Part shown: in pieces, positions 2,308-48,733 of the stretch | Layout of the letters: every line of letters starts with the position of its first letter | How positions within the stretch are numbered: the first letter of the stretch is position 1 | Source of the DNA: Acholeplasma sp. | GTDB lineage: Bacteria; Bacillota_I; Bacilli_A; Acholeplasmatales; UBA5453 | Assembly: GCA_036677365.1 (NCBI GenBank) | Contig: JAVBWN010000016.1 | Span: forward strand, 32,001-96,000 | Direction of reading: 5' to 3' | Length of the DNA: 64,000 nt | Made by a program: the position numbers and the translations under genes | The notes under the pieces: generated by a model | What the model saw: the letters and a program-made list of their open reading frames with translations, nothing else | What the model was told of the DNA's origin: nothing | The model's database searches: none

Positions 2308-2716
2308 AGTACATTCCTCCTTGATAGTTGTAAACATTATTTTGTTGTTTATTATTAAAAACACGATTATAGTAGAACTCTATATCCTCTCTAAACTCGG
2401 TTATTTTAGAAAACAGAATTTGGTCGATATCAAGTTTATGGTCATTGAGTGTCAATTTTAGTCCCAATGCGTCAGTAATCTTTATGATTGTATCAAGCTG
2501 TGGGGAATTTGTATTATTTTCAATTCTCGCTATAGCGGGTTGTTTTAACCCAGTCATTTCAGCCAATTGTTTTTGACTTATTCCTTTGCTTTTTCTGGTG
2601 TTAACAATAGTTTCAATTAATTCTTTTTCAATTCTGTAAAGATCTCCCCATTTTTTTAGTGTTTCATCGTTTCTTTCAACATCGTCTAAAAATGTAAAGA
2701 TATTATTTTTTTTCAT
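2258..2716 (-). CDS. HigA-like XRE HTH antitoxin with C-terminal ChAD-like tail
   Basis: RKSKGISQKQLAEMTGLKQPAIARIEN HTH, then about 60 aa N/Q/Y-rich tail overlapping the secB-like start. Confidence 0.85.
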   Translation of the reverse strand: MKKNNIFTFLDDVERNDETLKKWGDLYRIEKELIETIVNTRKSKGISQKQLAEMTGLKQPAIARIENNTNSPQLDTIIKITDALGLKLTLNDHKLDIDQILFSKITEFREDIEFYYNRVFNNKQQNNVYNYQGGMYYENQPHQHPCKENHPA

Positions 2717-2779
2717 TTTTGCTCCTCTACCTTATCTTTATTTGCATTAACAAATGAGTATTCAAATGAACCATATATA

Positions 2780-2788
2780 AGTATAACA
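2780..2788 (-). promoter_or_regulatory. Possible internal extended -10 promoter for antitoxin and chaperone
   Basis: TGTTATACT on the minus strand in the 90-bp toxin-antitoxin gap. Confidence 0.4.
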
Positions 2789-2806
2789 AAAAACAATTTA
2801 GGGTTA

Positions 2807-3154
2807 TCACTGTTTTTTATGAATGTTCTTAATGTGTTTTCTAGCAATTTCAATTTCTGATGGTGGTGTCGATTGACTCTTCTTAAAAAAGCCATTCAAT
2901 ATGTAAAACTTTCCATTGAAAAACGTAAACATGACCCTTAAATTAGTGGTACGCAACTCGTACAGATCATCCTCTAGTTTTTTAAAGGACTCTCGTTTGA
3001 ATTTTTCGTTCATCTCTAAACCATGCTCAGCTAGTTTATCCATATATCTTCTTAAATCAATCCAATTTTTAGGGTTCCCCGAACTTTTGATATCAGCAAT
3101 CAAATCATTTATAAGAGCTCTATCTTTGTCTGGGTAAGGAATAACTTCATACAT
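2807..3154 (-). CDS. HigB/RelE-superfamily (Gp49-like) toxin
   Basis: KKLEDDLYELR..LRVMF...ILNGFFKKSQSTPPSEIEIARK; toxin-first order; AGGAG RBS. Confidence 0.88.
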   Translation of the reverse strand: MYEVIPYPDKDRALINDLIADIKSSGNPKNWIDLRRYMDKLAEHGLEMNEKFKRESFKKLEDDLYELRTTNLRVMFTFFNGKFYILNGFFKKSQSTPPSEIEIARKHIKNIHKKQ

Positions 3155-8866: not shown

Positions 8867-11592
<2,726 letters not shown>

Positions 11593-18472: not shown

Positions 18473-18508
18473 TAAAAAGCGATATTTTTGAAAAATATTG
18501 CTTTTTTT
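18473..18508 (+). terminator. Intrinsic terminator ending capD-glm operon
   Basis: aaaaagcgatattttt / aaaaatattgcttttt stem. Confidence 0.8.
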
Positions 18509-18569
18509 ATCGAAAAAACGGACAAAAACACGCAAAAAAACGTTTTATCAAGTGATAGAGGGTGGTAAA

Positions 18570-19841
18570 ATGAATTTTAATGAAGAAAATCAAAATGATT
18601 CAGTAATGGGTAGATTTACTATTGAAGATTTTTTTAGTTTACTAGAAAAATCAAAATTCAATGAGAAGATATTATCAACACGAGAATATTTGCTAAATCA
18701 GATGTATGATAATGGAATAAAGAAGAGTATAAGAAATTTCTATATTGATCCTATTAGAGATAATGTTGTTTTTTATCGTGGAATGGATAATGAAGCTCAT
18801 CCCGTTAGTCCCAGTATCACACGACTTATAAATCCTTTAGATGCAAAGATAGAGAGTCATTATTTGGGAACATTATTGAGATATCCTTTTTTAAATGAAG
18901 ATTCAAATAGTGGCATATCTATAAAAATGATGGCTAGAATGCAACACTATAATTACAAATCACGATTAGTAGATATTACAGTGAACCCATTTGTTGCGAT
19001 ATATATGGCTTGTTATAACTCTTTCACAATAAACGGCAAATTGATTAAATTTGCTTATATTAATAACACTAAAAACGAAGGAAACGTTAATCAGTTGAAA
19101 TCATTGCATTTTACTACTAGCATAAATGACTCGGTTAAAGATAATTTGCGTCTACTTGATTCCATTATAAGTAGTACACCCTTTAAACAAAAAGTGAAAA
19201 ATTACACTAATCAACCAGTTGGTATTATTGACTTACAATTGTTTAAGACTAATTCTGCATCATATGATCTGAGATATGATGCTCAAGAAGGTGCTTTTAT
19301 CATGTTCATGAATGATTATCTTTCACCAGTTTCACCATTACAAACAAAATCCATGAGTAGACTTATTTATGAATATATAGATGCAAGTGACAAATACAGT
19401 TTACTGTATTTATTAGCAAAAAATCGGATTACTTACGTAACCATATACCCAGATAAAGAACTATCACATGAAATTATCAAAATATATAACAAAGCCACAA
19501 TAACGACAGGAATAAGTTCTCTAAATAATGATATCAGTCAATTAAAAAATGAGTTCATTGAATTGGCACACATTAATAAATACGATTTACTACACATTAA
19601 ATCACTTTGTAAAAAATATTATAATGACCAGTCATTAATAGAATTTTTACTGACAGATTACATCAAACTGATCAATATGAAAAAGAAACTCAAAAGTGAT
19701 CGTATAAATTTACTAAAAACAAAACCTTTAAACGTTCAGTCCATGAATAAAATCAATTATGAGATTAATATACACAATGATGGGGTAAACAAACTAGCGA
19801 GTATTTCAAATGATTTAAAATTTAAGGTGCAATTAATATGA
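18570..19841 (+). CDS. FRG-domain protein
   Basis: VFYRG, PSITR, MQHYNYKSRLVDITVNPFVAIYMA, RYDAQEGAF match FRG motifs. Confidence 0.75.
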   Translation: MNFNEENQNDSVMGRFTIEDFFSLLEKSKFNEKILSTREYLLNQMYDNGIKKSIRNFYIDPIRDNVVFYRGMDNEAHPVSPSITRLINPLDAKIESHYLGTLLRYPFLNEDSNSGISIKMMARMQHYNYKSRLVDITVNPFVAIYMACYNSFTINGKLIKFAYINNTKNEGNVNQLKSLHFTTSINDSVKDNLRLLDSIISSTPFKQKVKNYTNQPVGIIDLQLFKTNSASYDLRYDAQEGAFIMFMNDYLSPVSPLQTKSMSRLIYEYIDASDKYSLLYLLAKNRITYVTIYPDKELSHEIIKIYNKATITTGISSLNNDISQLKNEFIELAHINKYDLLHIKSLCKKYYNDQSLIEFLLTDYIKLINMKKKLKSDRINLLKTKPLNVQSMNKINYEINIHNDGVNKLASISNDLKFKVQLI

Positions 19842-19898
19842 TGATAATAAAAAATCCAAATGATTATACGAATAAATTTTATATAATGAGGTTTTAAG

Positions 19899-21632
19899 AT
19901 GGAAAACTCAGTTGTATTAGAAAATCAATCCTCTGCAATATTTAGTATCTATAAACTGGATATTGATGCACTTGTTAATGATGAGGACAACAACTTAATT
20001 TTTGAAGACAAAATAACCCCATTAGAAAAAGTAAATGCTTTTGTTGCCATTAGGTTGGCAAACCTAGACAGTAATTATATCTATAGTAATAATAATCATT
20101 TTCACACTTATTTATTCAATGCAGGGAATGTTGCTAAATGGAAAGAGTTTATTGAAGCATTTTTTTTGCATGAAAATGTTTCCGAAGATGTTTTTAAAAC
20201 AAAATTCCCATCGTATATTATTTTAAAAGAAATTGATAATAGTATTTATTTTATGACCGCGGGGTTAGCCAACTCTATTTTTAGCAATTATAAAGAAAAG
20301 ACATTTGGTTTGGATCTTGTACCTAAATTGATTGAAGAAGATGATTCAATCATCAAACATATAGCAGATCATAGAGTTTATGGGAATAGAAACAATGTAA
20401 ACTATGTAAATAGAATAGAATCTGCGTTTAATAACGAGATAAGTTATGAAGCAATATATAAAGAAATGGGTATAACTGCCAAAAAAGATATACAAAGAAA
20501 AATTGGTTTATATGTTAGCGAAGATAGCAATGATACCCCGATATCTTTTGGTGCAGGTGTTCATATTGGTAAGAGAATATCAGCCAACGAACTTAATAAT
20601 ATTATTAACACAATAAATATTTTGTACAGAGATGATACTAAAATCAACTTTGCACTAGGGTACATAGTTGATGCGAATCGTAAGGGCATGAAGCAAAGTG
20701 CGATTACTGAAAACTATTTTGAAGCAATCGATAATGGAACAGGTGAGATAGAATTAAGCTATAATTATGAATTAAGCTATAATATAAAAGACTATATACT
20801 CGTAAACTCTAAAAATGCAGAATTGGTTGATGTTATGCAAAAATCAGGTGTAAACACGTTAACAAGTATTGATGATATTATTAAAATAATTCGATATGAA
20901 CAATCTAGGGGTAAAAAATCTAGAAATTTCATGAAGAATTATGCTTTATCATTCAATTACCAAAAGATTAAGTTTTTTGATTTGCTTGAAGTATCTCACC
21001 AGTTTAATGAAACCCAAGTATATCTTATTGATGGAATATGGTATGTTTTTGATACTACATACTTAGAATATCTAAATAGGAAATATAACGCTCTAATAGA
21101 GGAATCAAAATCACATTATAATGGAAAACTATTAACCATTGATGTAAAATTCCTAGATAAAAAATTTATAAATGAAAATGAACTTAAAAAATCTATAGAA
21201 AATAGCACGATACTCATTGATTCAGATGAAAAATATTATAAAGGTATAGAAATTGCAGACGCAATATACTGTCAAGAAAACACCATCTACTTATTTCATA
21301 ATAAATCATCCTTTGATGCTAAAGGTTGTAGAGACTTACTTGGACAAATAGATACTTCAAGCAACATTTTATTACACATGATGAGTAATTACTTAGAAAA
21401 TTTTGATGACACCAATCGATATGTTAACGATTTGAAAAAAAACAACACAACAAAAACTATTCATGTTGATGAATTTGATTCGTTATTAAAAAGTAGTTTG
21501 ACAAAAATTGTTTATGTTGCATATTTCACGAGTATTATTCAGGAAAACAAAAAGTCAAACTATGTTAAATATCTAATAGAAACTACTCATTACAAATTGA
21601 AAGATAGAAAACATGGATTTATAGTAATTTAG
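19899..21632 (+). CDS. TIGR04141/DUF6119-like protein with putative C-terminal nuclease-like domain
   Basis: SIYKL, YFMTAG..FGLD, VYLIDGIWY, IEIADAI...LFHNK...CRDLLGQ pattern; 577 aa. Confidence 0.65.
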   Translation: MENSVVLENQSSAIFSIYKLDIDALVNDEDNNLIFEDKITPLEKVNAFVAIRLANLDSNYIYSNNNHFHTYLFNAGNVAKWKEFIEAFFLHENVSEDVFKTKFPSYIILKEIDNSIYFMTAGLANSIFSNYKEKTFGLDLVPKLIEEDDSIIKHIADHRVYGNRNNVNYVNRIESAFNNEISYEAIYKEMGITAKKDIQRKIGLYVSEDSNDTPISFGAGVHIGKRISANELNNIINTINILYRDDTKINFALGYIVDANRKGMKQSAITENYFEAIDNGTGEIELSYNYELSYNIKDYILVNSKNAELVDVMQKSGVNTLTSIDDIIKIIRYEQSRGKKSRNFMKNYALSFNYQKIKFFDLLEVSHQFNETQVYLIDGIWYVFDTTYLEYLNRKYNALIEESKSHYNGKLLTIDVKFLDKKFINENELKKSIENSTILIDSDEKYYKGIEIADAIYCQENTIYLFHNKSSFDAKGCRDLLGQIDTSSNILLHMMSNYLENFDDTNRYVNDLKKNNTTKTIHVDEFDSLLKSSLTKIVYVAYFTSIIQENKKSNYVKYLIETTHYKLKDRKHGFIVI

Positions 21633-21889
21633 AGCATGAATAATGAATTCATAACTGATATGTTGATAAGGTAGATACGATTAGTGAAACGCATTACGGT
21701 AATAGTCAATTCAATTAGATTCTAAAAAGAGATATGAATTCTTATAGTATTTATTGAACGTCGAATATTATCGATACAACTGGCCCAAATATATTAGGTA
21801 TTAAGAAAAAAGAAAATAAGTATACAGCTTAATATCATAACAGATTAAGGTCACATTTATTAAAAATACGATATAGTAAGGAGAAGAAA

Positions 21890-22297
21890 ATGTTAGATAA
21901 AAATACAGCAGAAAAATTATGGAAAGACGTTTTTGGTAATGTTGAATGGGCTACTGATTGTTTCGGTACAACAATGCATCGAGATGCTTGGAGCAACGAA
22001 CCGGTTATGCTATTAAAACCAGGAAACAATAGAAAGTATGATTATAGTTGGAACATAGATCATATTAGACCAAAATCTGATTTTCCAAAAGAGTCAGATG
22101 CAGACTTTTTCAATAATTTTGAACCTATGCATAGATTAAATAATGGTGCAAAAAGTGATAACTATCCTCACTTTGAGATTGATGGAAAAAAGTACAAAGT
22201 GTTCAAGCAAGAACAATATTATGGCTATGGAATTATCAGTGTTGCTGAAAACAAAAAAGTTGATTGGAAAAGCGTTCAAAATAGACATTATAAATAA
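21890..22297 (+). CDS. Stand-alone HNH endonuclease
   Basis: WNIDHIRPKS...NNFEPMHRLNNGAKSD; AAGGAG RBS. Confidence 0.85.
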   Translation: MLDKNTAEKLWKDVFGNVEWATDCFGTTMHRDAWSNEPVMLLKPGNNRKYDYSWNIDHIRPKSDFPKESDADFFNNFEPMHRLNNGAKSDNYPHFEIDGKKYKVFKQEQYYGYGIISVAENKKVDWKSVQNRHYK

Positions 22298-22337
22298 CAG
22301 ATAAAACAACAATGTGACTAATTTCTGTATAATTACT

Positions 22338-22370
22338 AAAGGTGTACTTTTTTTGAAGTACACTTTTATT
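22338..22370 (+). terminator. Intrinsic terminator
   Basis: gtgtactt / aagtacac stem plus T run. Confidence 0.65.
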
Positions 22371-22391
22371 ACATACTACACTTCTCACTAA

Positions 22392-22409
22392 TGGTAAAAA
22401 AATTTACCA
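22392..22409. promoter_or_regulatory. Inverted repeat, candidate XRE operator
   Basis: TGGTAAA-aaaa-TTTACCA; half-site ATGGTAAAA repeated near 22434. Confidence 0.5.
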
Positions 22410-22472
22410 ATAATCTTGTTATTGCTGAAATACATGGTAAAATATAAGTGTATTAAATAGGAGAGATGAAAA

Positions 22473-23597
22473 ATGAACATTTCACTTGTGATTGGAAAAA
22501 ACATTCAAAAGCTCATGGAAAAAGAGAAGGTCTCGCTAAGACAGTTGAGTGAATCAATTGGCATTACTCATCCAACTTTAAGCCACTATGTTGAAGGTAA
22601 ACAAGCGATAGATAGCGAAAAACTGATGTTAATCGCGAAGTTTTTTAAGAAACCGTTTGACTATTTTTTTAAAGAAGATAACAAACAAATCACTTTTATG
22701 TTTAGAGCGGATAAAGCTAATAAGGATATACAAAATATTGATATAGAACATTTGTCAAATACCATATATTCCTATTTAGATGTAATCGGCGATGTTGGAT
22801 ACCAGTATATTCCCCAAAAATATCAACTTAACTTAAAAGAAGACAAAAAGAGTTTATTCAATTTGATTGCGAAAATAGCCTATGAACAAAGAAAGTTTGC
22901 GAATATTGAAAACGTCATTCCAGATAACTACTTTGATGTCATACAAAGTATAGGCATCAATGTGATTGTCAAAGACTTTAAAAATGATGCTTATTTCGGT
23001 GCGTCATCTTATTCGTCCGATTTAGGCAGCTACATCATGATTAATAACTCCGATAAGGTATCAGAAGAAAGAAAGATATTCTCTTTAATTCATGAGTATG
23101 CACACTTATTATTCCATTCGGACCAATACTCTGATAGCCAGTTTAACGCGTTTTATTTAAACAGTAAAACCGATATTAACGAACAAATCGCCAATAAGTT
23201 TGCTGGACATTTTTTGATGCCAAGACATTTAGTAGAATCATATATGACTTCTAGAAATAACGTGGATGCAATCGAAATGAAAAAGTATTTTAAAGTGAGT
23301 ATTCAAACCGTGTATGTCATGTTACATGAATATGGGTTTATTTCTAAAGAAGTCTATAATGATTTTTGGAGAAGAATTAACCTTAATGGCTTTAAACAAG
23401 AAGAACCGTTCCCACTCGATAAGATTGATATTCAAGAAAAGAATGTCAAATTAGTCAACAGAATCAAAGATTTGTATTTTAATGAAGCAATCAGCGCGAA
23501 TAAAATTTCTGAGGTACTCGGTATGGATACCTTAGAAACTAGAAAACTGTTGAAAGAGTGGAGAGATATGGATGAACGATATTTATCACTCAAGTAA
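22473..23597 (+). CDS. XRE HTH fused to ImmA/IrrE Zn metallopeptidase
   Basis: N-terminal HTH; RKIFSLIHEYAHLL (HExxH); EQIANKFAGHFLMP. Confidence 0.92.
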   Translation: MNISLVIGKNIQKLMEKEKVSLRQLSESIGITHPTLSHYVEGKQAIDSEKLMLIAKFFKKPFDYFFKEDNKQITFMFRADKANKDIQNIDIEHLSNTIYSYLDVIGDVGYQYIPQKYQLNLKEDKKSLFNLIAKIAYEQRKFANIENVIPDNYFDVIQSIGINVIVKDFKNDAYFGASSYSSDLGSYIMINNSDKVSEERKIFSLIHEYAHLLFHSDQYSDSQFNAFYLNSKTDINEQIANKFAGHFLMPRHLVESYMTSRNNVDAIEMKKYFKVSIQTVYVMLHEYGFISKEVYNDFWRRINLNGFKQEEPFPLDKIDIQEKNVKLVNRIKDLYFNEAISANKISEVLGMDTLETRKLLKEWRDMDERYLSLK

Positions 23598-24096
23598 CAT
23601 TAGTGTGGTTGTAGATAATAACATTTTAGTGGATTTATATGAACTGAATTGCATTCACCTATTATTCTTAATCTTTGATATAGTCATTATCCCTAAGATT
23701 ATTTATGAAGATGAAATCACATCGGAGATTAAAGATATTCTAAAGACATATCCTATTGAAATAGGAGCTATTACGACAGAAATTGGGTTAGATGCATACG
23801 CTATACTTGTCTCGAATGAATCATTCAAAAGATTGTCAAGATACGATCGTTTTGCAATAGCGATCTCCAAAGAGAACCATTACTTTTGTAATAGTAATGA
23901 CAAACTGGTTCGAAAAGCATGTGAGTATCTGGATGTAAAATATACAGGCATTCTAGGTATACTGGGAAGAGCTTATAAGAAAAATTGTATCTCAATAATT
24001 CAATTAAAATCGTATTTAGATGATTTAATATCGGATAGAACCTCTTGCTATATTGATAAAAAGATTGTAGATCAGTTTAAAATCGAAATGGAATAA
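23572..24096 (+). CDS. PIN-domain protein (DUF3368-like), putative toxin
   Basis: VVVDNNILVD, LSRYDRFAIA, SNDKLVRKAC..LDVKYTGILGIL; overlaps upstream gene. Confidence 0.8.
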   Translation: MNDIYHSSNISVVVDNNILVDLYELNCIHLLFLIFDIVIIPKIIYEDEITSEIKDILKTYPIEIGAITTEIGLDAYAILVSNESFKRLSRYDRFAIAISKENHYFCNSNDKLVRKACEYLDVKYTGILGILGRAYKKNCISIIQLKSYLDDLISDRTSCYIDKKIVDQFKIEME

Positions 24097-24160: not shown

Positions 24161-24179
24161 TTTTATATGAATACATAAT

Positions 24180-24212
24180 ACTGAAACACGATTCAGTGAA
24201 TCATGATTCAGT
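24180..24212. repeat. Tandem overlapping dyads upstream of recombinase pair
   Basis: ACTGAA-acacga-TTCAGT overlapping perfect palindrome TGAATCATGATTCA (24197-24210). Confidence 0.7.
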
Positions 24213-24293
24213 AAAACACAATGACATTAAAGTAATTAATCATCGTCTAACTGTATTCATTATAGAAGAACATTTAAGATAGGAAATATAACC

Positions 24294-25277
24294 ATGAACG
24301 AACACCCTTTAGAACTGTTAATCCAACAATACCTCGTTGAAAAAGACATCACTCAAGGCACCTATGATCTTTTCAAAATCATTCTCGACCAATATGTTAC
24401 CTATTTGAGAGAATATAACATAGACTTTCCGAATACATCGGATGTCATCGCGTTTCTAGAATGGAAGAAAAGTGAGGGTTGTTCAATCCGCTGGACCAAC
24501 CATCAAATTGGGACCTTAAAAAACTTTTACAGGTATTTATGTTTGAATCAACAGCGCTTAGGTTTACCTGAAGCGTATGCCTATGATATCATGCAACCAA
24601 TCCAGCGGGAGACTTTAGACCATAATGAATTTAAACCCACCTTATCTACTGAACAAGCCAAACAGCTGTTATTGTATTGTAAGGAACGTAGAGATACTCG
24701 CTCACAATACCGTGATTACGCCATCGTTTATCTAATGCTCACCACCGGTGTGAGAAGCGTTGAGGTCAGACGGGCGAAACGAAAAGATTTAAAACGGATC
24801 CAACAACAATTGGTCTTATACATCCAAGGAAAAGGCAGAACTGCACCCGATGCGTATGTAAAAATTCCAAAGGGTTTAGAAGTGGCCATAAACGACTATT
24901 TATCCTTAAGGAAAGACATCAATCCTTTTCTATTTATTGGTCATTCTAGACATCAAACCACGCCTTACTTATCGCGCTCTTTCGTGATTAAAATGTTTAA
25001 ACAGTTGATGAAAGATGCCGGATTAGAAGAAACCCAAGTGACTGCCCATAGCTTACGACATACCGCTGCGACCATCAATCTATTACGTGGTGGGTCATTA
25101 GAATCGACTAGACAACTTTTAAGACACGAAAATGTAACAACAACCATGATATATGCCCACCACGTCGGTCCAATGACAGGAGAACCAGAAAACGAAATCG
25201 AACGTCTGATTTTAAAGGATGATGAAACCAATAAGGAGGTATCGGATGCATCGACACCCATTAGAAGCCTTAAGTGA
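24294..25277 (+). CDS. Tyrosine recombinase, full catalytic set
   Basis: TGVRSVE (R), QGKG (K), HSLRH (HxxR), LRH (H), TMIY (Y). Confidence 0.95.
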   Translation: MNEHPLELLIQQYLVEKDITQGTYDLFKIILDQYVTYLREYNIDFPNTSDVIAFLEWKKSEGCSIRWTNHQIGTLKNFYRYLCLNQQRLGLPEAYAYDIMQPIQRETLDHNEFKPTLSTEQAKQLLLYCKERRDTRSQYRDYAIVYLMLTTGVRSVEVRRAKRKDLKRIQQQLVLYIQGKGRTAPDAYVKIPKGLEVAINDYLSLRKDINPFLFIGHSRHQTTPYLSRSFVIKMFKQLMKDAGLEETQVTAHSLRHTAATINLLRGGSLESTRQLLRHENVTTTMIYAHHVGPMTGEPENEIERLILKDDETNKEVSDASTPIRSLK

Positions 25278-26217
25278 ACAGTATTTAGCGGAGAAAAAGT
25301 TGTCGCCTTCGAGCTTAAAATCGTACCGAATCTCATTTAAACACTACATAGCATACCTAAAACAATACGACATTTTATACCCGACAACGGGTGATGTGAT
25401 TAAGTACCGACAACATAAAAGAGACATCGGGTGTTCAACCTACTACATTCATGTCCATATATCCGCACTTAAGGGTTTATACAAGTATTTGAGTCTAAAT
25501 CAAAAAAGATTAGCCATACCAGAGGTTTATGCCCATGACATCCTGGGTCCGATTAAGGGTGAACAGATTAAGCGTCAAATGACCAAACCGGTGTTAACGA
25601 TTGAAGAAGCGAGACATCTGATTTTGTTTACCAAACAACAACGACAGTTTATTTGGCACTACAGAAATCACGCAATCATCTCGTTGATGTTGACATCAGG
25701 GCTATCGGTTCATCAGGTTGTACACGCAAAAAGGGCGGATTTTATCGAGGAAGCAGGTACGTATGTCCTTTATATCGCACGAAAAACCAGTCAAACCAAA
25801 GATAGAATTAAACCATCGAAAGGCACCACCCTAGCCATCCTTGATTATTTATCCAAACGTCATGACGATAACCCGTACTTGTTTTGTGCCCACAAAAACA
25901 AGCAAACCCTAAACCCATTAGAACGGATGTTTTTCTATACCATGTTTCACCGCGTTTTAAAAGAAACCAACTTAGAACATACCGGCATTACGCCTTACTG
26001 TTTGAGACATACCGCTGCGTTATTCAATTTAGAACGCGGTGGTTCGATTGAACAAACCAAAGCGTTGTTGGGCCATGTGAGTATCAAATCTACTTTGGTT
26101 TATCAAGCGTATTTAGACCGTTTGAAAAACGACGCTGAACAACAAATTGAATCGATGCTCATCCATGAAGATACGGCTTTAGAGGATACATTTTTACCCT
26201 ATATATCATTCGAATAA
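25246..26217 (+). CDS. Tyrosine recombinase paralogue with degenerate active site
   Basis: Colinear with upstream gene (HPLE..QYL.EK, YL.LNQ.RL..PE.YA.DI) but SGLSVHQ and YCLRH; AAGGAGGT RBS. Confidence 0.9.
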   Translation: MHRHPLEALSEQYLAEKKLSPSSLKSYRISFKHYIAYLKQYDILYPTTGDVIKYRQHKRDIGCSTYYIHVHISALKGLYKYLSLNQKRLAIPEVYAHDILGPIKGEQIKRQMTKPVLTIEEARHLILFTKQQRQFIWHYRNHAIISLMLTSGLSVHQVVHAKRADFIEEAGTYVLYIARKTSQTKDRIKPSKGTTLAILDYLSKRHDDNPYLFCAHKNKQTLNPLERMFFYTMFHRVLKETNLEHTGITPYCLRHTAALFNLERGGSIEQTKALLGHVSIKSTLVYQAYLDRLKNDAEQQIESMLIHEDTALEDTFLPYISFE

Positions 26218-26320
26218 CTCAAGTTCTATTTAGAATTAGGGTACATATAAACCTAGCACTTAAACCCCATAAGTGCTATTTTTCGCGTGATTTAGGCATC
26301 TAGAAAGAGTTCAGAAAGCA

Positions 26321-26409
26321 TTTGTTCAAATTTCGAACAAAAGTTGGATTTTTCTCTTGTCATTTGATAAGGTTATGGTGTAAAATAGGATTATTCAATA
26401 ATCGAACAA
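26321..26409 (+). promoter_or_regulatory. Promoter bracketed by two TT(G/A)TTC-N7-GAACAA dyads
   Basis: Dyads at 26321-26341 and 26391-26409; TTGTCA (26357) with 18-bp spacer to TAAAAT (26381). Confidence 0.65.
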
Positions 26410-26423
26410 TGGATGGTGACCCG

Positions 26424-27044
26424 ATGAACGATAACGCATTCTTTAAACCGACAATTCTTTATAAAGAATATATGGTCTTAGACCTCATTGAAAAAAACCC
26501 TAAAATTACCCAAAGGGAAATGAGTAAGTTGATAGGGGTTGCTGTGTCTATGATCAACGACTACTTGGAAGAATTCGAGAAAAAAGGCCTCATTAAAAAG
26601 AAGAAATACTCAACCAAAACCGTTGAGTATTTAATCACGAAAAAAGGGACTGAAAAGAAAAAAGTCTTAAACATTGGGTATTTAAACTCAACCAAAGACT
26701 TATACTTCCAAGCGAAAGAGAACTTCGAGAAGTTCTTAGCTCAAGTCAAAGACAAAGGCTTTAACAACATCCTTTTATACGGTGCTGGTGAAGTCGCAGA
26801 AATGTTGTTACATACCATCATGACCAGCAAGACCAATGAAGTAAATGTCTTAGCGGTCATTGATGATGATCCGAATAAAATCGGATCTAAGATTGGTAAT
26901 TATGTCATTATTCCTAAAGAAAGTATTCGAGACTTTGACCATGATGGTATCTTGGTATCTACATACAATCGTAAGGATGAGATTAAAGCCAAGTTATTAA
27001 AGATTGATTATCCAATCGAAAATATTATCGAGTTTTTTGAGTAA
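26424..27044 (+). CDS. Winged-helix (MarR-like) regulator with C-terminal Rossmann-like domain
   Basis: NPKITQREMSKLIGVAVSMINDYL...YLITKKG; LLYGAGEVA...VIDDD. Confidence 0.85.
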   Translation: MNDNAFFKPTILYKEYMVLDLIEKNPKITQREMSKLIGVAVSMINDYLEEFEKKGLIKKKKYSTKTVEYLITKKGTEKKKVLNIGYLNSTKDLYFQAKENFEKFLAQVKDKGFNNILLYGAGEVAEMLLHTIMTSKTNEVNVLAVIDDDPNKIGSKIGNYVIIPKESIRDFDHDGILVSTYNRKDEIKAKLLKIDYPIENIIEFFE

Positions 27045-27065: not shown

Positions 27066-27659
27066 ATGTTCTATTTAAAGTTTAAACGTTTTTATGATAC
27101 AGTATTAGCTTTCATTGGTTTAATTGTATTATCCCCACTATTCTTAATATTAATGATCTTAATCAAACTAGATTCAAAAGGACCGATTCTATTTAAACAA
27201 AAGAGAATTGGTAGACATAAAAAGCATTTCTATATCTTAAAGTTTAGAACCATGCGTATCGATACACCTAAAGATACACCAACCCATATGTTGGAAAATC
27301 CACAACAATGGATTACTAAGGTAGGTAAGTTCTTAAGAAAGACAAGCTTAGATGAGCTACCTCAAATCATCAATATCCTAAAAGGTGATATGTCTATTAT
27401 CGGACCTAGACCCGCATTATGGAATCAATACGATTTGATGGATGAAAGAGATAAGTATGGTGTTCACAGTCTATATCCAGGATTAACTGGTTACGCACAA
27501 ATCAATGGTAGAGATGAACTCCCTATCCCTGAAAAAGCAAAACTAGATGGCTATTATGTAGAACATATTAGTTTTTGGTTAGATATCAAAATATTTTTTG
27601 GCACAATTAAAAGCATTATAAAATCTGAAGGAATCGTTGAAGGAGTTAAACATGATTGA
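27066..27659 (+). CDS. Initiating sugar-phosphate transferase (Bac_transf family)
   Basis: KRFYD, LDSKGPILFKQKRIG, KFRTM, LRKTSLDELPQ, GPRP, PGLTGYAQ. Confidence 0.95.
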   Translation: MFYLKFKRFYDTVLAFIGLIVLSPLFLILMILIKLDSKGPILFKQKRIGRHKKHFYILKFRTMRIDTPKDTPTHMLENPQQWITKVGKFLRKTSLDELPQIINILKGDMSIIGPRPALWNQYDLMDERDKYGVHSLYPGLTGYAQINGRDELPIPEKAKLDGYYVEHISFWLDIKIFFGTIKSIIKSEGIVEGVKHD

Positions 27660-42068: not shown

Positions 42069-42830
42069 TTATGCAATCAACAACGTCGTCCCCGACTTTT
42101 TAAAAGCTTCCACATAAGCCTCACTCGGCATCTTATCTGTAATGATATAATCGATGTCCTCAAACTCACAGGTCTTACATAAAAAGATTTTATCAAACTT
42201 CGTATGGTCTACAAGTAGTATATGAACCTTTGAATGGTTCATCATTTCTCTTTTTACTAAAGCTTGCTCCAAGGAGGCTTCAGTAATACCTGAGGCTAAG
42301 GATATCCCTCCACATGAGAAGATAAAAGCGTTACAATTAAAGTTTTTAATATAGTTCACCGTATCTATTCCTAGAACAGAGTTTGTATTGTTATAGATGA
42401 TACCACCAGGCAAATACACCCGCACATTTGGACTTTGTGTTAGAATGGCAGCGTTATTTAAACCATTGGTAATTACCGTTACATTCGGTAGGTTATCTAA
42501 TAGTGGTAATACATAACCGGCAGTTGAACTTGAATCCACAAAATAAGACTCATTTTTTGTTAACAGCGTCGCGCATTTCACCGCGATGCTGTTTTTTTCT
42601 TTGACTTGTGTTTGAACACGAACCAAAATGGATGACTCTCTAGAAGAAGATTCTATCAAAGAGGAATGACCGTGGGTTCGATGGATGATCCCTTGTCTTT
42701 CCATATCATTTAAATCTCTTCTTAAGGTAGATTCACTGATAAAGAGCTTGTTTTGTAAATTCTTGTTTGAAATGGTTTTTTCTTTCTTGATAATCTCAAA
42801 AATCTTTCTTTGACGTTCATTAAGTATCAT
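42069..42830 (-). CDS. DeoR/GlpR family regulator
   Basis: ERQRKI, ISESTLRRDL, DSSST, VITNGL, LVDHTKF; GGAGGA RBS. Confidence 0.93.
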   Translation of the reverse strand: MILNERQRKIFEIIKKEKTISNKNLQNKLFISESTLRRDLNDMERQGIIHRTHGHSSLIESSSRESSILVRVQTQVKEKNSIAVKCATLLTKNESYFVDSSSTAGYVLPLLDNLPNVTVITNGLNNAAILTQSPNVRVYLPGGIIYNNTNSVLGIDTVNYIKNFNCNAFIFSCGGISLASGITEASLEQALVKREMMNHSKVHILLVDHTKFDKIFLCKTCEFEDIDYIITDKMPSEAYVEAFKKSGTTLLIA

Positions 42831-42847
42831 AGATTCCTCCAAAAATG

Positions 42848-42966
42848 TGACTGAATATGACTGAATTTTACAATTATCGTGACTAATTGTCAAGATAACG
42901 TTCATTTGTTGACTTTAATCCGTCACATTTGTTATAGTTGGGATGAACCTAATGAAACCGTTTCCA
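42848..42966 (+). promoter_or_regulatory. Divergent control region with TGACT repeats, promoter and cre-like site
   Basis: TGACTGAAT twice (42848, 42858), TTGACT (42909) to TGnTATAGT (42930-42938), TGAAACCGTTTCCA (42953-42966). Confidence 0.65.
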
Positions 42967-43010
42967 GCGATAACAACGCGATTATATTTATATTTATGAA
43001 GGATGAAACA

Positions 43011-44255
43011 ATGATAAAAAAAATGACTTTAGCAGTACTGGGTTTTGGCCAACGTGGCGTCGTCTTCTCTAATGTTGCCAAATCGTACCCAGATGAGATT
43101 GAGCTTGTGGCTGCTTGTGAGAAAAATACCCATAAGCATGCATGGATTAAAGCGAATTATCATTTGAATGAAAATCAAATCTACAGTGACTTTGACACAT
43201 TCATGAATGCAGGTAAACTTGCAGATATTTTAGTGATTTCAACCATGGATCAAGATCATCACTTACACGCATTAAAAGCATTAGAAGTCGGTTATGACAT
43301 ATTGCTAGAAAAGCCGATTGCTTTAAGCAAGAAAGATATCTTTGAAATTAAGGATTTAGCCAATAAATTAAATCGTAAAATTGCAGTTGCCCACGTACTC
43401 CGATACACGCATTTTTACAATGAGATTAAAAAACTCATTGACCAAGGGGTACTAGGTAGTATTGCAACCCTCCACCAAACTGAGAATGTTGGTTATCTAC
43501 ATTACGCACACAGCTTTGTGAGGGGTAATTGGCACAATTCCAATACCTCTAGCCCGATGATTCTCGCCAAAAGTTGTCATGACATCGATATCATCAGATA
43601 CCTAGTCGGTAAACGTGTTGAAAAAATTTCATCTTTTGGAAACCTTCATTACTTCAAAAAAGAAAACAGGCCAAAGAATGCAGCTAAAAACTGTATTGAC
43701 TGTAAGGTGGATTGTCCATTTAATGCAATCCAGTTCTATGAAGAAAATCCAAGTTGGATGGCATTCTTCAGCTTAGAAAAAGACGCTAAAAAAGTTTTAT
43801 CCGATCGGAATTTAAATTACGGACGTTGTGTTTATGATATGGACAACAATGTGGTGGATCACCAAGTACTCAACATGCAATTCGAAGATGGGTCATCCGC
43901 ATCCTTCACCATGACCGCTTTCTCCTATGAGACCCATCGACGAATTGAGATTAAAGGGACCAAAGCGGAACTTGTGGGCGACTTAGAAGATAACCTCATT
44001 ACTGTGATGCCATTTGGAAAAACCCCATTTAAGATTGACATCAAAGCCCTCACCGATGACTTTAGTTATCACTCCGGTGGTGACAAAAATCTGCTCATCG
44101 ATTTTGTCAGAGCTGTAAGAGACAATACATCATTCTTAACAGACATCAACTACGCTGTAGAAAGCCACTACTTAGCATTCGATGCGGAAACATCTAGACT
44201 CAATCAAGGGTTAGTCATAGATACATCCAAATCATGGAGCGATTATGAACGATAA
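43011..44255 (+). CDS. Gfo/Idh/MocA NAD-dependent oxidoreductase
   Basis: LGFGQRG, LLEKPIA, HSFVRGNW, AKSCHDID, HSGGD. Confidence 0.88.
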   Translation: MIKKMTLAVLGFGQRGVVFSNVAKSYPDEIELVAACEKNTHKHAWIKANYHLNENQIYSDFDTFMNAGKLADILVISTMDQDHHLHALKALEVGYDILLEKPIALSKKDIFEIKDLANKLNRKIAVAHVLRYTHFYNEIKKLIDQGVLGSIATLHQTENVGYLHYAHSFVRGNWHNSNTSSPMILAKSCHDIDIIRYLVGKRVEKISSFGNLHYFKKENRPKNAAKNCIDCKVDCPFNAIQFYEENPSWMAFFSLEKDAKKVLSDRNLNYGRCVYDMDNNVVDHQVLNMQFEDGSSASFTMTAFSYETHRRIEIKGTKAELVGDLEDNLITVMPFGKTPFKIDIKALTDDFSYHSGGDKNLLIDFVRAVRDNTSFLTDINYAVESHYLAFDAETSRLNQGLVIDTSKSWSDYER

Positions 44256-45696
44256 TCATCATTATCTCACAGTGGATTTAGGCGCGTCATCTGGACGCGT
44301 CATCATCACCACTGTGGGTAATTCAATCATTCAAAAAGAGGTTCACCGTTTCAAAAACCAACCGATTCAAGAAGCGGTTCTTTTAGTATGGCCATTTGAA
44401 TACCTTTTACAAGAAATCTTGTTAGGCATTCAAAAAGCCTTTGAAATCGAACCCAACCTAGAATCGATTGGGATTGATACTTGGGGTGTCGATTATGGCT
44501 ATATCGGTAAGGATGGATTATTGCTTAGAAACCCTGTATGTTATCGTGACGAAAGAACCTTACAAGGACAATCGCTCACCAACGCCTTCTTTTCAAAAGA
44601 AGATTTATATGAACAAACAGGTATTCAACACTTAAGATTCAATACAATTTATCAACTCGCTTATGATTTAAAATACGAACAAAAACTACTAAAAAATGCA
44701 CGTACCTGGTTAATGATGCCAGATCTCATCGCTTATTACCTCACAGGTAACCCACGAATAGAACTGACCAATTTATCCACAACCAGTTTTTATAACCCTA
44801 AGGAAAAAAACATCATTGATGCATTATATCGTATGGGGTTTAACAAAGATTTAATACCTCAAGGAATTCAACCTGGTGAAGTCTATGGGTATCTTAAAGA
44901 AGATATCGTCAATAAGTATCACTTAAAAAATGTACCAGTAATTGCGGTGTGTACACACGATACCGCTTCGGCGATTCACAGTATCGATGTGAATCATGAC
45001 GATGTGTATATTTCATCTGGAACGTGGAGTTTGATAGGTAAATTATTAGAACAACCCCTCATCAATTTAGAATCGTATCTCGCTTCTTATACCAATGAAG
45101 TCGGATTTAACCATCAAATCAGATTCTTAAAGAACATAGCAGGCTTTTGGGTAAAAAACAAAATCATAGAAGCCTTTAAACTGGATAAAATCGATTACCA
45201 ATCACTAGATCAAGAAATTAATCAAAATCTAACCTTTAATTCAATCATCGACTTAGATGCCCCTGAATTTGAATTAGGCATCGATATCCTAGAAGAGATC
45301 AAATATTACTGTATCAAAACGAATCAATCCACCCCAAAAACCTTAGCAGAATACCTCGCGTTATTTAACTACAGTCTCGTCTGTAAGTATAAGCACCATT
45401 TAGAAACACTTGAGAGATTAACCCATATTAAAACAAAACAAATCATCATCATTGGCGGCGGTTCACAAAATGACCTCATCAATCAGATGACCGCCGACAT
45501 CACTGGTTTAGTCGTCATCAAAGGTGATAAAGAAGCAACCTCGATTGGGAATGCTTTAGTACAACACCAATCAAAGTATCCAAATTTCAGTAAATCAGAC
45601 TTAAGAAGTAAAAACCAACGCATGTTTAAACCGAAAAATGACCTATCCAAGGTATATCAGAAATATCAAACCATCCTAAAGGGGCGAATCATATGA
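44245..45696 (+). CDS. rhaB: Rhamnulokinase
   Basis: DLGASSGR, EVHRF, IGIDTWGVDY, FNTIYQL, HDTASA, ISSGTWSL, GGGSQN. Confidence 0.92.
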   Translation: MNDNHHYLTVDLGASSGRVIITTVGNSIIQKEVHRFKNQPIQEAVLLVWPFEYLLQEILLGIQKAFEIEPNLESIGIDTWGVDYGYIGKDGLLLRNPVCYRDERTLQGQSLTNAFFSKEDLYEQTGIQHLRFNTIYQLAYDLKYEQKLLKNARTWLMMPDLIAYYLTGNPRIELTNLSTTSFYNPKEKNIIDALYRMGFNKDLIPQGIQPGEVYGYLKEDIVNKYHLKNVPVIAVCTHDTASAIHSIDVNHDDVYISSGTWSLIGKLLEQPLINLESYLASYTNEVGFNHQIRFLKNIAGFWVKNKIIEAFKLDKIDYQSLDQEINQNLTFNSIIDLDAPEFELGIDILEEIKYYCIKTNQSTPKTLAEYLALFNYSLVCKYKHHLETLERLTHIKTKQIIIIGGGSQNDLINQMTADITGLVVIKGDKEATSIGNALVQHQSKYPNFSKSDLRSKNQRMFKPKNDLSKVYQKYQTILKGRII

Positions 45697-46937
45697 CACA
45701 AAATGAAAAATACAATATAGCGAAATCCATCTATCAAAAATATGGTGTTGATGTCGATCAAGCGATTCAAACACTCAAACAAACACCTATTTCTATACAG
45801 TGTTGGCAAGGGGATGATGTCAAAGGCTTTTATAGTAATGAAGCACTCTCTGGTGGTATTTCAGTAACCGGAAATTACCCATTCCGAGCAAGAACAATTG
45901 AAGAACTTCGAAGCGATTTAGAAGTTGTCTTTCAATTGGTTCCATTCAAACATCGCGTGAATTTACATGCGATTTATCTCGATACTAAGGATAAGATCGA
46001 ACTGGATGAAATCGAACCGAAACACTTTGAATCTTGGGTTAATTGGGCGAAAAAAGAGGGCATTGGATTGGACTTCAATCCAACCCTATTCTCACATCCA
46101 ATGGCAGCTTTAGGATTTACGTTATCATCCAATGATGATCATATCAGAAGCTTTTGGGTAAGACACGTCAAACAATCCAGAAAAGTGGCTCAGTATTTTG
46201 GAGAAGCCTTAGGGATTGAAACGGTATGTAATTTATGGATACCAGATGGTTATAAAGACACCCCATACAACCGACTAGCACCAAGAATTCAACTTCAAAA
46301 ATCGCTAAATGAAATTTATACATCCAAATTGGATCGTGTGGTAGACACCCTTGAATCGAAACTCTTTGGTATTGGGGCGGAATCATATACAACCGGTTCA
46401 CACGAATTTTATATGGGGTATGCGATTAAACACAATCTCGGGTTATGTTTAGATTTGGGGCATTTCCATCCAACAGAACAAGTATCGGATAAACTCTCTG
46501 CCATGTCGTTATACGTGGATCACTTATTACTACATGTATCCAGACCAGTACGCTGGGATTCAGACCACGTGGTTACACTCAGCGATGATTTACTCAGTGT
46601 TACAGAAGCATTGGTTCGAGATGATTTATTAAAGAAAACAGCGATTGGATTAGACTATTTTGACGCTTCAATTAATCGTATTGCAGCGTGGGTGATTGGT
46701 ATCAGAAATACACAAAAAGCGTTGTTAAAAGCCCTATTAGAACCGAAAGAATTGATTGAGAAAATAGAAAAAGCACAAAACTATACCGCTAGATTGGCCT
46801 ACCTAGAAGAGTTAAAAGCATTACCATTCGGGCTGGTTTATGACTACATTTGTGAAGTAGAACATAAACCCGTTGGCATCGATTTCTTAAAAAAAATAGA
46901 AGCTTATGAAGCCAACATGAAAGGCAAACGACCATGA
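45693..46937 (+). CDS. rhaA: L-rhamnose isomerase
   Basis: CWQGDDV, RVNLHAIY, LDFNPT, WIPDG, ESKLFGIG, GHFHPTE, HVSRPVRWDSDH. Confidence 0.97.
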   Translation: MTQNEKYNIAKSIYQKYGVDVDQAIQTLKQTPISIQCWQGDDVKGFYSNEALSGGISVTGNYPFRARTIEELRSDLEVVFQLVPFKHRVNLHAIYLDTKDKIELDEIEPKHFESWVNWAKKEGIGLDFNPTLFSHPMAALGFTLSSNDDHIRSFWVRHVKQSRKVAQYFGEALGIETVCNLWIPDGYKDTPYNRLAPRIQLQKSLNEIYTSKLDRVVDTLESKLFGIGAESYTTGSHEFYMGYAIKHNLGLCLDLGHFHPTEQVSDKLSAMSLYVDHLLLHVSRPVRWDSDHVVTLSDDLLSVTEALVRDDLLKKTAIGLDYFDASINRIAAWVIGIRNTQKALLKALLEPKELIEKIEKAQNYTARLAYLEELKALPFGLVYDYICEVEHKPVGIDFLKKIEAYEANMKGKRP

Positions 46938-47749
46938 TAAAAAACATATTAGAATCGAGATTTATCCAAGAATTTTCCAACGTCATCGATAGAATGTACC
47001 TCTTAGGTTGGGACGAAAGAAACGCCGGGAATGTTTCATACATTCTCGATGAAGCCGAATTATCCGAGTACCTAGACTTATCTAAAATAGGGCGATTATA
47101 CCCGCTTCAAATCAATGCGAAACCGTTGGCAGGTAAATACTTACTTGTCACAGGGTCAGGTAAGTATTTCAAAAATGTCAAAGAACAACCAGAAGCGAAT
47201 GCTTGTATTGTAAAAGTCACACAAGCAGGTGACCATGTCGAAATTCTATGGGGATTAAAACCGACCGAAAGACCGACATCCGAATTATCGACACACCTAG
47301 CTTCACATATTTCTAGACTTGAAGTAGACCCAACGCATAGGGTCATCATCCACACACACGCGACATATTTAAATATGATGAGTGCAATCACTGAACTCGA
47401 TGAAAAAACATTCACCAAAGCATTGTGGGGATTAAATACAGAAAACATCATCATCTTTCCAGAAGGCTTAGGCATCATTCCATGGGAAATTCCAGGGAAC
47501 GGGATCATTGGAAAAAACACAGCAGAAAAATTTAAAACATTCAAAATAGTCTTATGGCCACTCCATGGCGTAGTCGCATCCGGTGACACCCTAGATTCAA
47601 CGTTTGGTTTGGTTGAAACAGTAGAAAAAGCCGCCATGACCTATTTGGTGATTAAACCATTTAATAACCATAAACTCATACCAGATGCAGATTTAGTTAG
47701 ACTTGCGAAAGCTTTTAATGTCAAACCGAACGAGGCATTCATCAAATGA
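46934..47749 (+). CDS. rhaD: Rhamnulose-1-phosphate aldolase
   Basis: GWDERNAGNVS, TGSGKYFKN, PTSELSTH, IHTHAT, WPLHG, ETVEKAA. Confidence 0.95.
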   Translation: MIKNILESRFIQEFSNVIDRMYLLGWDERNAGNVSYILDEAELSEYLDLSKIGRLYPLQINAKPLAGKYLLVTGSGKYFKNVKEQPEANACIVKVTQAGDHVEILWGLKPTERPTSELSTHLASHISRLEVDPTHRVIIHTHATYLNMMSAITELDEKTFTKALWGLNTENIIIFPEGLGIIPWEIPGNGIIGKNTAEKFKTFKIVLWPLHGVVASGDTLDSTFGLVETVEKAAMTYLVIKPFNNHKLIPDADLVRLAKAFNVKPNEAFIK

Positions 47750-48726
47750 AAAAAGTCATCGTTATTATGTTGATAGCACTCGTTATGTTATCCGGATGTA
47801 AGGAAAAAGAAAAACCCATCATCGATGACACTGGCGCAATAGAATTATTAGAAGACCCGACGTTCTCCACTGGATTTCAGTTGTTAGGTATTAGTCCTGT
47901 CGTCGATGGTAGAACCATTCAACGACATCTAGACTATAACGGTGAAGCACTGCCTTCAACCAGAAATGTATGGTATATGGCACAGTGGTGGACCCCACAC
48001 GATGTTACTGATGCAACTTATGCTAAAGTGAGCGGCGTTCACACATACACCACTGAATCGAGAACCTTACATATAAATCCAAGTGACCACGGTTATTTGA
48101 GAATTGATCTAAAAGCATCCAAAGAGTATAGTGAACCAAGACAAAGTGGTCAACCTTGGACACATGCACTCATTGAACAAGATTTCAACGAGTCAGTGGG
48201 TATGCAAGCCTTATCTGCACTCATACTCAAACTTGAAGTCACTGTGAATTCGGTTGAAAACTTAACGGGTTCAGCTTATGATCCATCCAAACACGCAGCA
48301 CAACTCTTATGGTATTTAACGTTAAGAAATGTTGTTCCAGAAGATGCTGATCCAAACGAAGTAGGAACTCGAGGAGACTTCCTATGGTTTGGCATTCCGA
48401 TTTATGATAATCGTTCCGATTTTATAGCACAATCAGCCCATCTCGACCAAGGTGGTCCCGGTACAACCAATAAACTCATTTATTCAATGTCTTCAAGAAA
48501 CTATTTTGATGAAAAGATTCAAATGGGTAAAACCTATCAAATTGAAATTGATGTCTTACCTTACTTACAAGAGGCATTCCTTTACGCGATTCAAAACAAT
48601 GCCCTGGTGAATGCACAATATGAAAACATGCAAATTGGTTATATGAACTTAGGTTGGGAACTCCCAGGAACATTTGATGTATCATCGACTTTTAGAAATA
48701 TATCCATCAAAGCAGTTAAGAAGTAG
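47746..48726 (+). CDS. Lipoprotein of unrecognised family, paralogue A
   Basis: Lipobox LSGC; motifs shared with 48734 and 58731. Confidence 0.8.
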   Translation: MKKVIVIMLIALVMLSGCKEKEKPIIDDTGAIELLEDPTFSTGFQLLGISPVVDGRTIQRHLDYNGEALPSTRNVWYMAQWWTPHDVTDATYAKVSGVHTYTTESRTLHINPSDHGYLRIDLKASKEYSEPRQSGQPWTHALIEQDFNESVGMQALSALILKLEVTVNSVENLTGSAYDPSKHAAQLLWYLTLRNVVPEDADPNEVGTRGDFLWFGIPIYDNRSDFIAQSAHLDQGGPGTTNKLIYSMSSRNYFDEKIQMGKTYQIEIDVLPYLQEAFLYAIQNNALVNAQYENMQIGYMNLGWELPGTFDVSSTFRNISIKAVKK

Positions 48727-48733
48727 GTGTGAT

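Follow-up and report, generated by a model that had tools for sequence, protein, structure and literature searches.

A conserved tandem pair of tyrosine recombinases with unequal active sites beside a polysaccharide locus of Acholeplasma

Introduction

Tyrosine recombinases (YRs) are usually called active or dead by the presence of the RKHRHY set of catalytic residues. What is the role of a recombinase that lacks the first arginine of this set (Arg-I) and sits directly beside an intact paralogue? This question is raised by two overlapping genes, here called A and B, on a 64,000-nucleotide stretch of DNA from Acholeplasma sp. (NCBI GenBank assembly GCA_036677365.1, contig JAVBWN010000016.1, positions 32,001 to 96,000 of the forward strand). 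We refer to this whole stretch as the window and give coordinates as positions within it. A preliminary description of the window, made without database searches, had proposed that A and B are an enzyme and a pseudo-enzyme that belong together.

We found that the two genes form a conserved pair in which A is invariant at its active site and B is relaxed at Arg-I while remaining under purifying selection. The reading that we prefer, with a probability of about 0.42, is that a catalytically leading A and an attenuated partner B make up a heteromeric Xer-like recombinase that acts at a hotspot of defence genes next to an exopolysaccharide (EPS) locus. Single ingredients of this reading are already known, namely heteromeric Xer pairs, an active IntDOT without Arg-I, the YR-fold proteins of SE and GInt elements that are devoid of catalytic residues, and recombinases at polysaccharide switches. 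To our knowledge, the mobile-element biology of Acholeplasma-like bacteria is poorly known. A full-text literature search returned no account of the pair, and since most subscription journals fell outside its scope an earlier report is possible.

Results

Two overlapping recombinase genes differ at Arg-I

The first gene, YR-A (24294..25277, + strand), encodes a canonical simple (Xer-like) tyrosine recombinase of 327 amino acids. The second, YR-B (25246..26217, + strand), runs in the same direction and encodes a paralogue of 323 amino acids with a degenerate Arg-I position. The B open reading frame is intact and could begin at 25219 or at 25246; the ATG at 25246 is the likely start because an AAGGAGG ribosome-binding site lies 7 nt 5' of it and because B orthologues start at an equivalent M-x-x-HPLE. 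With this start, A and B have an overlap of 32 nt. At the protein level they are 41% identical across 310 residues (BLASTP, E 2e-84), and both score above the curated Pfam cut-offs for the catalytic domain (PF00589, cut-off 27.1 bits; A 81.7, B 49.5) and for the SAM-like N-terminal domain (PF02899, cut-off 22.3 bits; A 29.2, B 29.7). An AlphaFold model of B (mean predicted local distance difference test score 83) has a two-domain recombinase fold, with XerA, XerH and Cre as its top PDB matches.

The catalytic set R-K-H-R-H/W-Y is complete in A, where it consists of R154 (codon 24753-24755, + strand), K180, H252, R255, H278 and Y287. At the aligned columns B has S154, K180, Y251, R254, H277 and Y286 and so reads S-K-Y-R-H-Y. 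On the + strand, the codon for Ser154 (tcg, 25705..25707) occupies the Arg-I position, that for Tyr251 (tac, 25996..25998) the first His of the HxxR motif and that for Tyr286 (tat, 26101..26103) the retained nucleophile, while Arg179 and Lys180 (cga aaa, 25780..25785) lie in the beta-hairpin, with Arg179 a candidate substitute arginine. The coordinates, identity and residues agree with the preliminary description, which had reported two overlapping colinear paralogues, the first with R-K-HxxR-H-Y and the second with an Arg-to-Ser change at codon 25705-25707 and with Arg-II, His and Tyr kept; the peptides that it quoted were found. It had also set YCLRH in B against HSLRH in A. The tyrosine is present in the B of the window, but this change proved specific to one lineage, as most B orthologues have His.

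A and B occur together

Among 61 related genomes, a B match was found in 10 (10 of the 46 of good quality), and in all 10 an A match lies directly upstream. We scanned a genome collection with one genome per species and recovered 25 loci at 40% identity or more. A and B stand in tandem at 23 of these, the remaining two being cut by a contig end, and the genes overlap or lie no more than ~35 nt apart in nearly all loci. The closest named B match is a Paracholeplasma protein. Nearly all of the 25 titles are Mycoplasmatota or unresolved Bacillota, and hosts of the pair include Paracholeplasma, Acholeplasma laidlawii 8195, Peloplasma, Mariniplasma, Izemoplasmatales and metagenome-assembled genomes (MAGs) labelled "Tenericutes"; four MAG titles name other groups, where binning errors are possible. 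Beyond the 25 loci, the next best matches have less than 30% identity and belong to lone recombinases or to distant RIT-like sets. Judging by these scans, the pair is a Mycoplasmatota-specific accessory unit of ~2 kb. Collections of phages, plasmids and viral contigs contained only matches below 30% identity to the pair, which is not a known phage or plasmid integrase. Its position is not fixed, since in three complete genomes it lies at ~5%, 70% and 75% of the contig.

One Izemoplasmatales contig (L082:2270-4086) carries a 509-amino-acid frame with matches to the profiles of A and of B, after which comes a B fragment; this could be a gene fusion or a frameshifted assembly.

The loss of Arg-I is old and B is under purifying selection

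A search with B returned 66 proteins at E ≤ 0.001 among 1354 candidates, and the alignment was made from the 62 matches longer than 280 amino acids, leaving out P0013, P0014, P0053 and P0062. Arg-I is Ser or Thr in every B match from 89% down to 55% identity. After further loci were added, the family table comprised 36 A-type and 70 B-type rows, which include near-duplicates and are not independent of one another. All 36 A-type rows have RKHRHY together with a Q/H-G-K-G hairpin. B-type Arg-I, by contrast, is R in 28, S or T in 32 and K in 9 of the 69 rows that were typed, one of the 70 having been dropped because its hairpin region is missing. The hairpin-lysine column is variable across the B-type rows, and Arg-II, His-III and Tyr are present in all that are full-length. 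At the first-His column, nine B-type rows depart from His, with Tyr in 5, Cys in 1 and Asn in 3; Tyr is restricted to the near relatives of the window and the P. vituli group.

The B of the window falls in a well-supported clade of 22 rows on a quick tree of B, and Arg-I is Ser or Thr in all 22. The S/T state needs four changes on this tree. Repeated independent loss of Arg-I is likely but not proven from this tree, because well-supported branches force only one of the four.

Might the missing arginine be a sequencing error or a sign that B is a dying duplicate? Single copies of the pair do decay: A is broken into two frames in Acholeplasma laidlawii 8195, and B is frameshifted in the metagenome locus L147. 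Against this explanation, the 22 Ser or Thr rows reach down to 55-59% identity to the B of the window, its frame is unbroken, and three contigs on record encode the identical protein. The ratio of nonsynonymous to synonymous substitution rates (dN/dS), calculated for gene pairs with dS < 2, is 0.09-0.21 for B and 0.05-0.13 for A. The constancy of Ser/Thr within the clade and the low dN/dS of B exclude recent decay or sequencing error, an explanation to which we give next to no weight. The preliminary description had suggested looking for conservation of the Arg-I loss and for a dN/dS below 1 in orthologous pairs, and both were found, with Ser or Thr in all close orthologues and dN/dS at ~0.1-0.2. 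B does diverge faster than A in part: in four of seven comparisons with the window its identity is at least 3 points below that of A (77 vs 85, 74 vs 79, 47 vs 50 and 43 vs 50).

In Acholeplasma laidlawii 8195 (L079), A is split into two frames at 9079-10008 and B is intact. This recombinase pair has AAA_21-type gene pairs on both sides, of which the one between B and the downstream regulator includes RloB.

The pocket of B may be attenuated, rewired or repurposed

Loss of Arg-I by itself does not make a pseudo-enzyme, because IntDOT also lacks Arg-I and uses another arginine instead, according to Smyshlyaev et al. (2021, PMC8138268). The same paper describes the IntDes recombinases, whose function is unknown and which have a shifted Arg-I and a His-to-Tyr change at the first His. 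Of the proposed enzyme/pseudo-enzyme pair, the pairing is real and conserved, and the label of pseudo-enzyme for B is not established. B may have any of the roles that the preliminary description had offered, namely heteromeric partner, directionality factor, Tyr donor in trans or repurposed regulator.

Accordingly, B could be a fully active recombinase with a rewired pocket, in which Arg179 might stand in for Arg-I, and the two genes would then encode two active enzymes as in XerC/XerD or FimB/FimE. The displaced Arg-I and His-to-Tyr change that are described for IntDes correspond to the two changes in the B of the window (PMC8138268). Tyr, Arg-II and His-III are invariant in B under strong purifying selection, and an Arg occurs at or just before the hairpin-lysine column in the clade of the window and in three other S/T clades. 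However, by our reading of the alignment, Arg179, which is kept in the clade of the window, has no counterpart at those hairpin positions in five other Ser-type lineages (B_L063, P0022, the L075/L078/L080 group, P0029 and P0050), so compensation of this type is not general. Furthermore, many B-type rows with Arg-I retained have N, E, T, H, A, L or P in the hairpin-lysine column itself. We regard a rewired, fully active B as possible and as the strongest of the alternatives, with odds of roughly one in four.

A role for B outside recombination, as a DNA-binding regulator or directionality factor that represses the A-B operon or the EPS regulator, would agree with its relaxed Arg-I and hairpin lysine, its faster evolution in the comparisons above and the conserved palindromes at both edges of the unit. 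A pure DNA binder would not be expected to keep Tyr, Arg-II and His-III over deep divergence, and because these residues are invariant such a role fits poorly. The translational coupling of B to A also points to a 1:1 complex. We consider this role improbable. The invariant residues instead suggest that B still grips, and perhaps cuts, DNA.

The pair fits none of the systems with which it was compared

The simple two-domain recombinases XerC/XerD, XerA, XerH and XerS are the best family and fold matches and, like A and B, have no arm-binding domain. XerC and XerD form a heteromer of two paralogues in which catalysis by one partner can be dispensable. Unlike XerC/XerD, A and B are an accessory pair, present in 10 of 61 genomes, of neighbouring and overlapping genes that are linked to an EPS locus but have no fixed chromosomal place, and one of the two proteins is without Arg-I. 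Both proteins also score far below every named family in NCBIfam, Xer cut-offs included: A and B reach 121 and 93 bits against an XerA cut-off of 220, and 96 and 91 bits against an XerD cut-off of 329.6. The XerD of the same genome lies on contig C27 and exceeds that cut-off at 335.3 bits, and an XerC-like gene likewise lies outside the contig of the window. The claim in the preliminary description that the pair is not XerCD thus holds. It had also excluded a three-gene RIT; no third recombinase adjoins the pair, which is therefore not a RIT, the neighbouring genes are unrelated, and RIT-like loci are only distantly related to it (hidden Markov model scores 40-60).

IntDOT and IntDes share with the B of the window the absence of an arginine at Arg-I, and IntDes also the Tyr at the first His (PMC8138268). 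In contrast to B, which is the second member of a simple pair in Mycoplasmatota and whose family varies among R, K, S and T at Arg-I, they are lone integrases, equipped with arm-binding domains and found in Bacteroidetes elements or Desulfovibrio.

Several YR-fold genes in a row are found in Tn554 (TnpA/B/C), RIT (RitA/B/C), SE (IntA/Tfp/IntB/Srap) and GInt (GinA-D), which are likewise accessory and target-specific. In SE and GInt, YR-fold proteins that lack catalytic residues function alongside active recombinases (PMC10214605), which is a precedent for unequal partners. Here, by contrast, there are two equal-sized genes with no large recombinase and no TnpC-, Srap- or GinD-like small gene, no terminal inverted repeats were found, and B keeps Tyr, Arg-II and His.

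The integron integrase is likewise a resident recombinase beside variable, often defence-related genes, and in one clade the pair is vertical while its cargo turns over. It differs in that attC-like repeats were absent between the cargo genes and that the orientation and position of the cargo vary. The scores against the IntI model TIGR02249 are 40.5 bits for A and 26.9 for B (cut-off 265), and matches to the NCBIfam invertase are negligible (19 bits against a cut-off of 221). On the features tested, the pair fits none of the Xer pairs, IntDOT/IntDes, the multi-recombinase elements or the polysaccharide switches that are taken up below.

Conserved sequences mark both edges of the ~2-kb unit

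The left edge of the unit is the region upstream of A (24226..24293, + strand), with a TTAAAGTAA-type box, a TA-rich -10-like stretch, ATAGA(A/G)GAAC and a ribosome-binding site. By eye, the TTAAAGTAA-type box, the TA-rich stretch and ATAGAGAAC-like bases lie ~70 nt before the A start in most of 22 loci. We infer that this region may act as a promoter; a consensus promoter scan made no call upstream of A. The right edge is a terminator-like palindrome (26254..26283, + strand) of TAGCAC-N13-GTGCTA followed by a T run, which folds as a terminator. Its outer boxes and N13 spacing recur exactly at 11 of 23 pair loci and with one or two changes at no fewer than four others, and none of the 11 loci that hold the downstream regulator without the pair has it, allowing up to 2 mismatches. 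In G037 the palindrome lies 3' of extra genes that follow B, and homology with the pairless congener G048 starts 24 bp past it. An Rfam search gave nothing relevant.

Just left of the unit, at the right edge of the variable cargo, lies a 36-nt element of alternating half-sites (GATTCAGT / TGAATC; 24180..24215, + strand). It is identical in Paracholeplasma vituli, although A is saturated at synonymous sites between these two genomes. We considered this element as an att site and dropped it, as only the genome of the window and P. vituli have it, in one copy each. Words of the AAAACAC type that cluster at both cargo edges were likewise dropped because they are not conserved in two congeners.

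The unit is exchanged horizontally beside variable defence genes

In G001 and G008, A and B are 98% identical and the downstream regulator only 66%. The shared tract of 3.4 kb runs from ~190 bp upstream of A to ~220 nt into the regulator, with sharp edges and unrelated left flanks. This disparity and the sharp-edged tract indicate that the unit moved horizontally.

Between the GlmU terminator and the pair, the window has a 5.6-kb low-GC insert of variable cargo (18498..24096, + strand). Its genes encode an FRG/PDC-S15-like protein, DUF6119 (TIGR04141), a 135-amino-acid open reading frame without family, an RmrA-like HTH-M78 protein and a PDC-S70/DUF3368 PIN-like protein, and it thereby matches the candidate defence families PDC-S15, RmrA-like and PDC-S70. 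P. vituli and one genome from a different family also have the HTH-M78 and PIN-like genes together upstream of the pair. Among the cargo of further loci are TIR, reverse transcriptase, AbiEii and AAA_21/RloB genes and others like them. The genome of the window, G009 and G005 have GlmU on the left and A, B and the regulator on the right in common at 76-87% nucleotide identity, and between GlmU and A their genes are unrelated except for one shared two-gene HTH-M78/PIN-like module. By this synteny, the pair is vertically inherited in the three genomes and the cargo has turned over. In another sample a contig joins 18508, just past the GlmU terminator, to 24175, and two further samples have joints at 24179.

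The cargo lies upstream of A in most loci, between A and B in L151, and between B and the palindrome or regulator in G037, G044 and L147. Comparisons with empty sites (G058 vs G044, G048 vs G037, and G001 contig C35 vs C22) gave sharp breakpoints and no duplicated core.

Two loci have duplicated pieces. At L177:634-8925, two direct copies of A with its upstream region, ~91% identical across the first 300 nt, flank 6 kb with AAA_21/RloB and SatD/DUF3307 genes, and no B follows the first copy. At L151:4816-11401, one AbiEii-containing gene pair lies between A and B and a second follows a partial regulator; the second is flanked by duplicated pieces of the regulator, which form 278-nt direct repeats that are 83% identical.

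The pair is an optional neighbour of a constant regulator and polysaccharide operon

Wherever contigs reach far enough, the order of genes is A, B, R, T and the polysaccharide operon. R (26424..27044, + strand) is a winged-helix (HTH_24/MarR-like) regulator with a Rossmann-like C-terminal part and is the constant downstream neighbour of the pair. T (27066..27659, + strand) is a Bac_transf initiating sugar transferase and the first gene of the polysaccharide operon, which reaches ~42065. R lies downstream in 17 of the 25 genome loci, the other 8 contigs ending within 883 nt after B, and in 24 of 38 metagenome loci that hold B, where 13 of the remainder end within ~1.6 kb of B. In one further metagenome locus, L147, the 8 kb that follow B are taken up by defence-type genes, and R does not come into view.

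R was found in 19 of the 61 genomes, 9 of which are without the pair. In the R tree, genomes with and without the pair twice form strongly supported sister groups, and the pair label requires five changes, at least four of these being forced by well-supported branches. The regulator and operon are thus inherited vertically, with the pair as an optional extra. The control region of R (26330..26423, + strand) has a TTTGTTC-N7-GAACAAA palindrome, a TTGTCA-18-TAAAAT promoter and a CGAACAAT leader. The palindrome, upstream of the promoter, and the leader, downstream of it, are kept across families with or without the pair and are not part of the pair unit; the stretch at 26330-26412 is probably an autoregulatory operator set.

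This arrangement could mean that the pair is a phase-variation switch of the polysaccharide locus, inverting a promoter segment between B and R as FimB/FimE do at fimS. The constant order of recombinases, regulator and polysaccharide operon favours such a role, and there is a precedent in the Salmonella T1 antigen, for which PMC11294581 gives a FimB-like recombinase, an invertible 269-bp switch, three genes (one similar to a putative regulator) and polysaccharide genes. FimB and FimE, which are also recombinase paralogues in tandem, immediately precede a surface-structure operon, and T1 has a single recombinase in this place (PMC11294581). In contrast to both systems, no invertible segment was found here, and A and B are full-length two-domain proteins. 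The R promoter has no inverted repeats beyond GAACAA-type operator half-sites, which pairless genomes also have. The spacer between B and R is 108-293 bp in most loci, with one orientation in every assembly examined; in the window it is ~200 bp and holds the terminator and the R promoter. In G037, G044 and L147, kilobases of defence genes lie between B and R. Contigs of four public sequencing runs contained no strand-switching joints, although contigs would hide a rare inversion. We therefore find a phase switch unlikely, if slightly less so than a purely regulatory B.

Two further gene sets lie outside this region. At 1921-3154 (- strand), Gp49-like (HigB-type), HTH antidote-like and SecB-like genes stand in a row and resemble a toxin-antitoxin-chaperone set. 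After the polysaccharide operon, 42069-49627 holds a DeoR regulator and genes for rhamnose catabolism (FGGY-family sugar kinase, RhaA and a class II aldolase), and the GC content is back at the level of the genome.

Discussion

A and B are strictly paired and their genes overlap, A is invariant, and B is relaxed but under selection; from this we infer a two-subunit recombinase with unequal partners. A and B would be co-translated subunits of one Xer-like site-specific recombinase without an arm-binding domain. A would be the fully competent catalytic subunit, and B a partner that selection maintains and whose pocket is looser at Arg-I and near the hairpin lysine. Most likely, B would occupy the other half-site of an asymmetric core and help to build the synapse; it would cleave poorly or not at all, so that strand exchange would be led by A. 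Xer reactions, in which catalysis by only one partner is needed, offer a parallel. The two genes, the upstream box and the terminator-like palindrome together make up a ~2-kb accessory unit that is exchanged horizontally. Its place is just 5' of the EPS regulator, at a point of turnover among defence genes, and the unit probably inserts or removes DNA at this spot.

Several observations weigh against a heteromeric, A-led recombinase that acts at this hotspot. No recombination site for the pair was identified, and no inversion or excision. Long repeats, direct or inverted, were sought near the unit and across the polysaccharide locus, where matches did not exceed chance level, and the intergenic gaps of the cargo have no repeat in common, dif-like or attC-like ones included. 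The TAGCAC-N13-GTGCTA palindrome has no second copy in the window or elsewhere in the genome, which speaks against paired recombination sites of this sequence. The lack of strand-switching joints in the four runs points the same way, weakly so given what contigs can hide. Defence genes also collect upstream of R in pairless genomes, and the hotspot is thus not strictly dependent on the pair. The tract common to G001 and G008 has its right breakpoint within R; this breakpoint and the duplicated pieces of A and R in L177 and L151 look like homologous recombination, for which no dedicated recombinase would be needed. That B keeps Tyr, Arg-II and His-III without exception speaks for remaining catalytic chemistry in this protein, and Arg179 could replace Arg-I as another arginine does in IntDOT. 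A complex prediction for A and B, each given as an alignment and run without controls, scored 0.19 against a mark of 0.32, a value that counts neither for nor against the heteromer.

A more specific and far more speculative version of the unequal-partner recombinase, which we think about as doubtful as the phase switch, would make the unit a resident landing pad rather than the integrase of an island in transit. The recombinase would be an obligate A2B2 tetramer, in which the weak pocket of B limits the reaction to one A-led pair of strand exchanges that replication then finishes. Defence DNA would be captured or shed at three fixed points around the genes of the pair, beside the EPS locus, as in an integron without attC, and the system would be private to wall-less Bacillota.

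Whatever its reaction, the partner lineage gave up Arg-I and loosened the hairpin lysine while keeping its nucleophile and remaining under selection, always beside an untouched paralogue. The pair is thus a natural experiment on the division of labour in a recombinase tetramer, and it could be a compact two-protein system with built-in asymmetry. Its place between a hotspot of defence genes and a surface-polysaccharide locus ties it to two traits of Acholeplasma-like bacteria that bear on their relations with phages.

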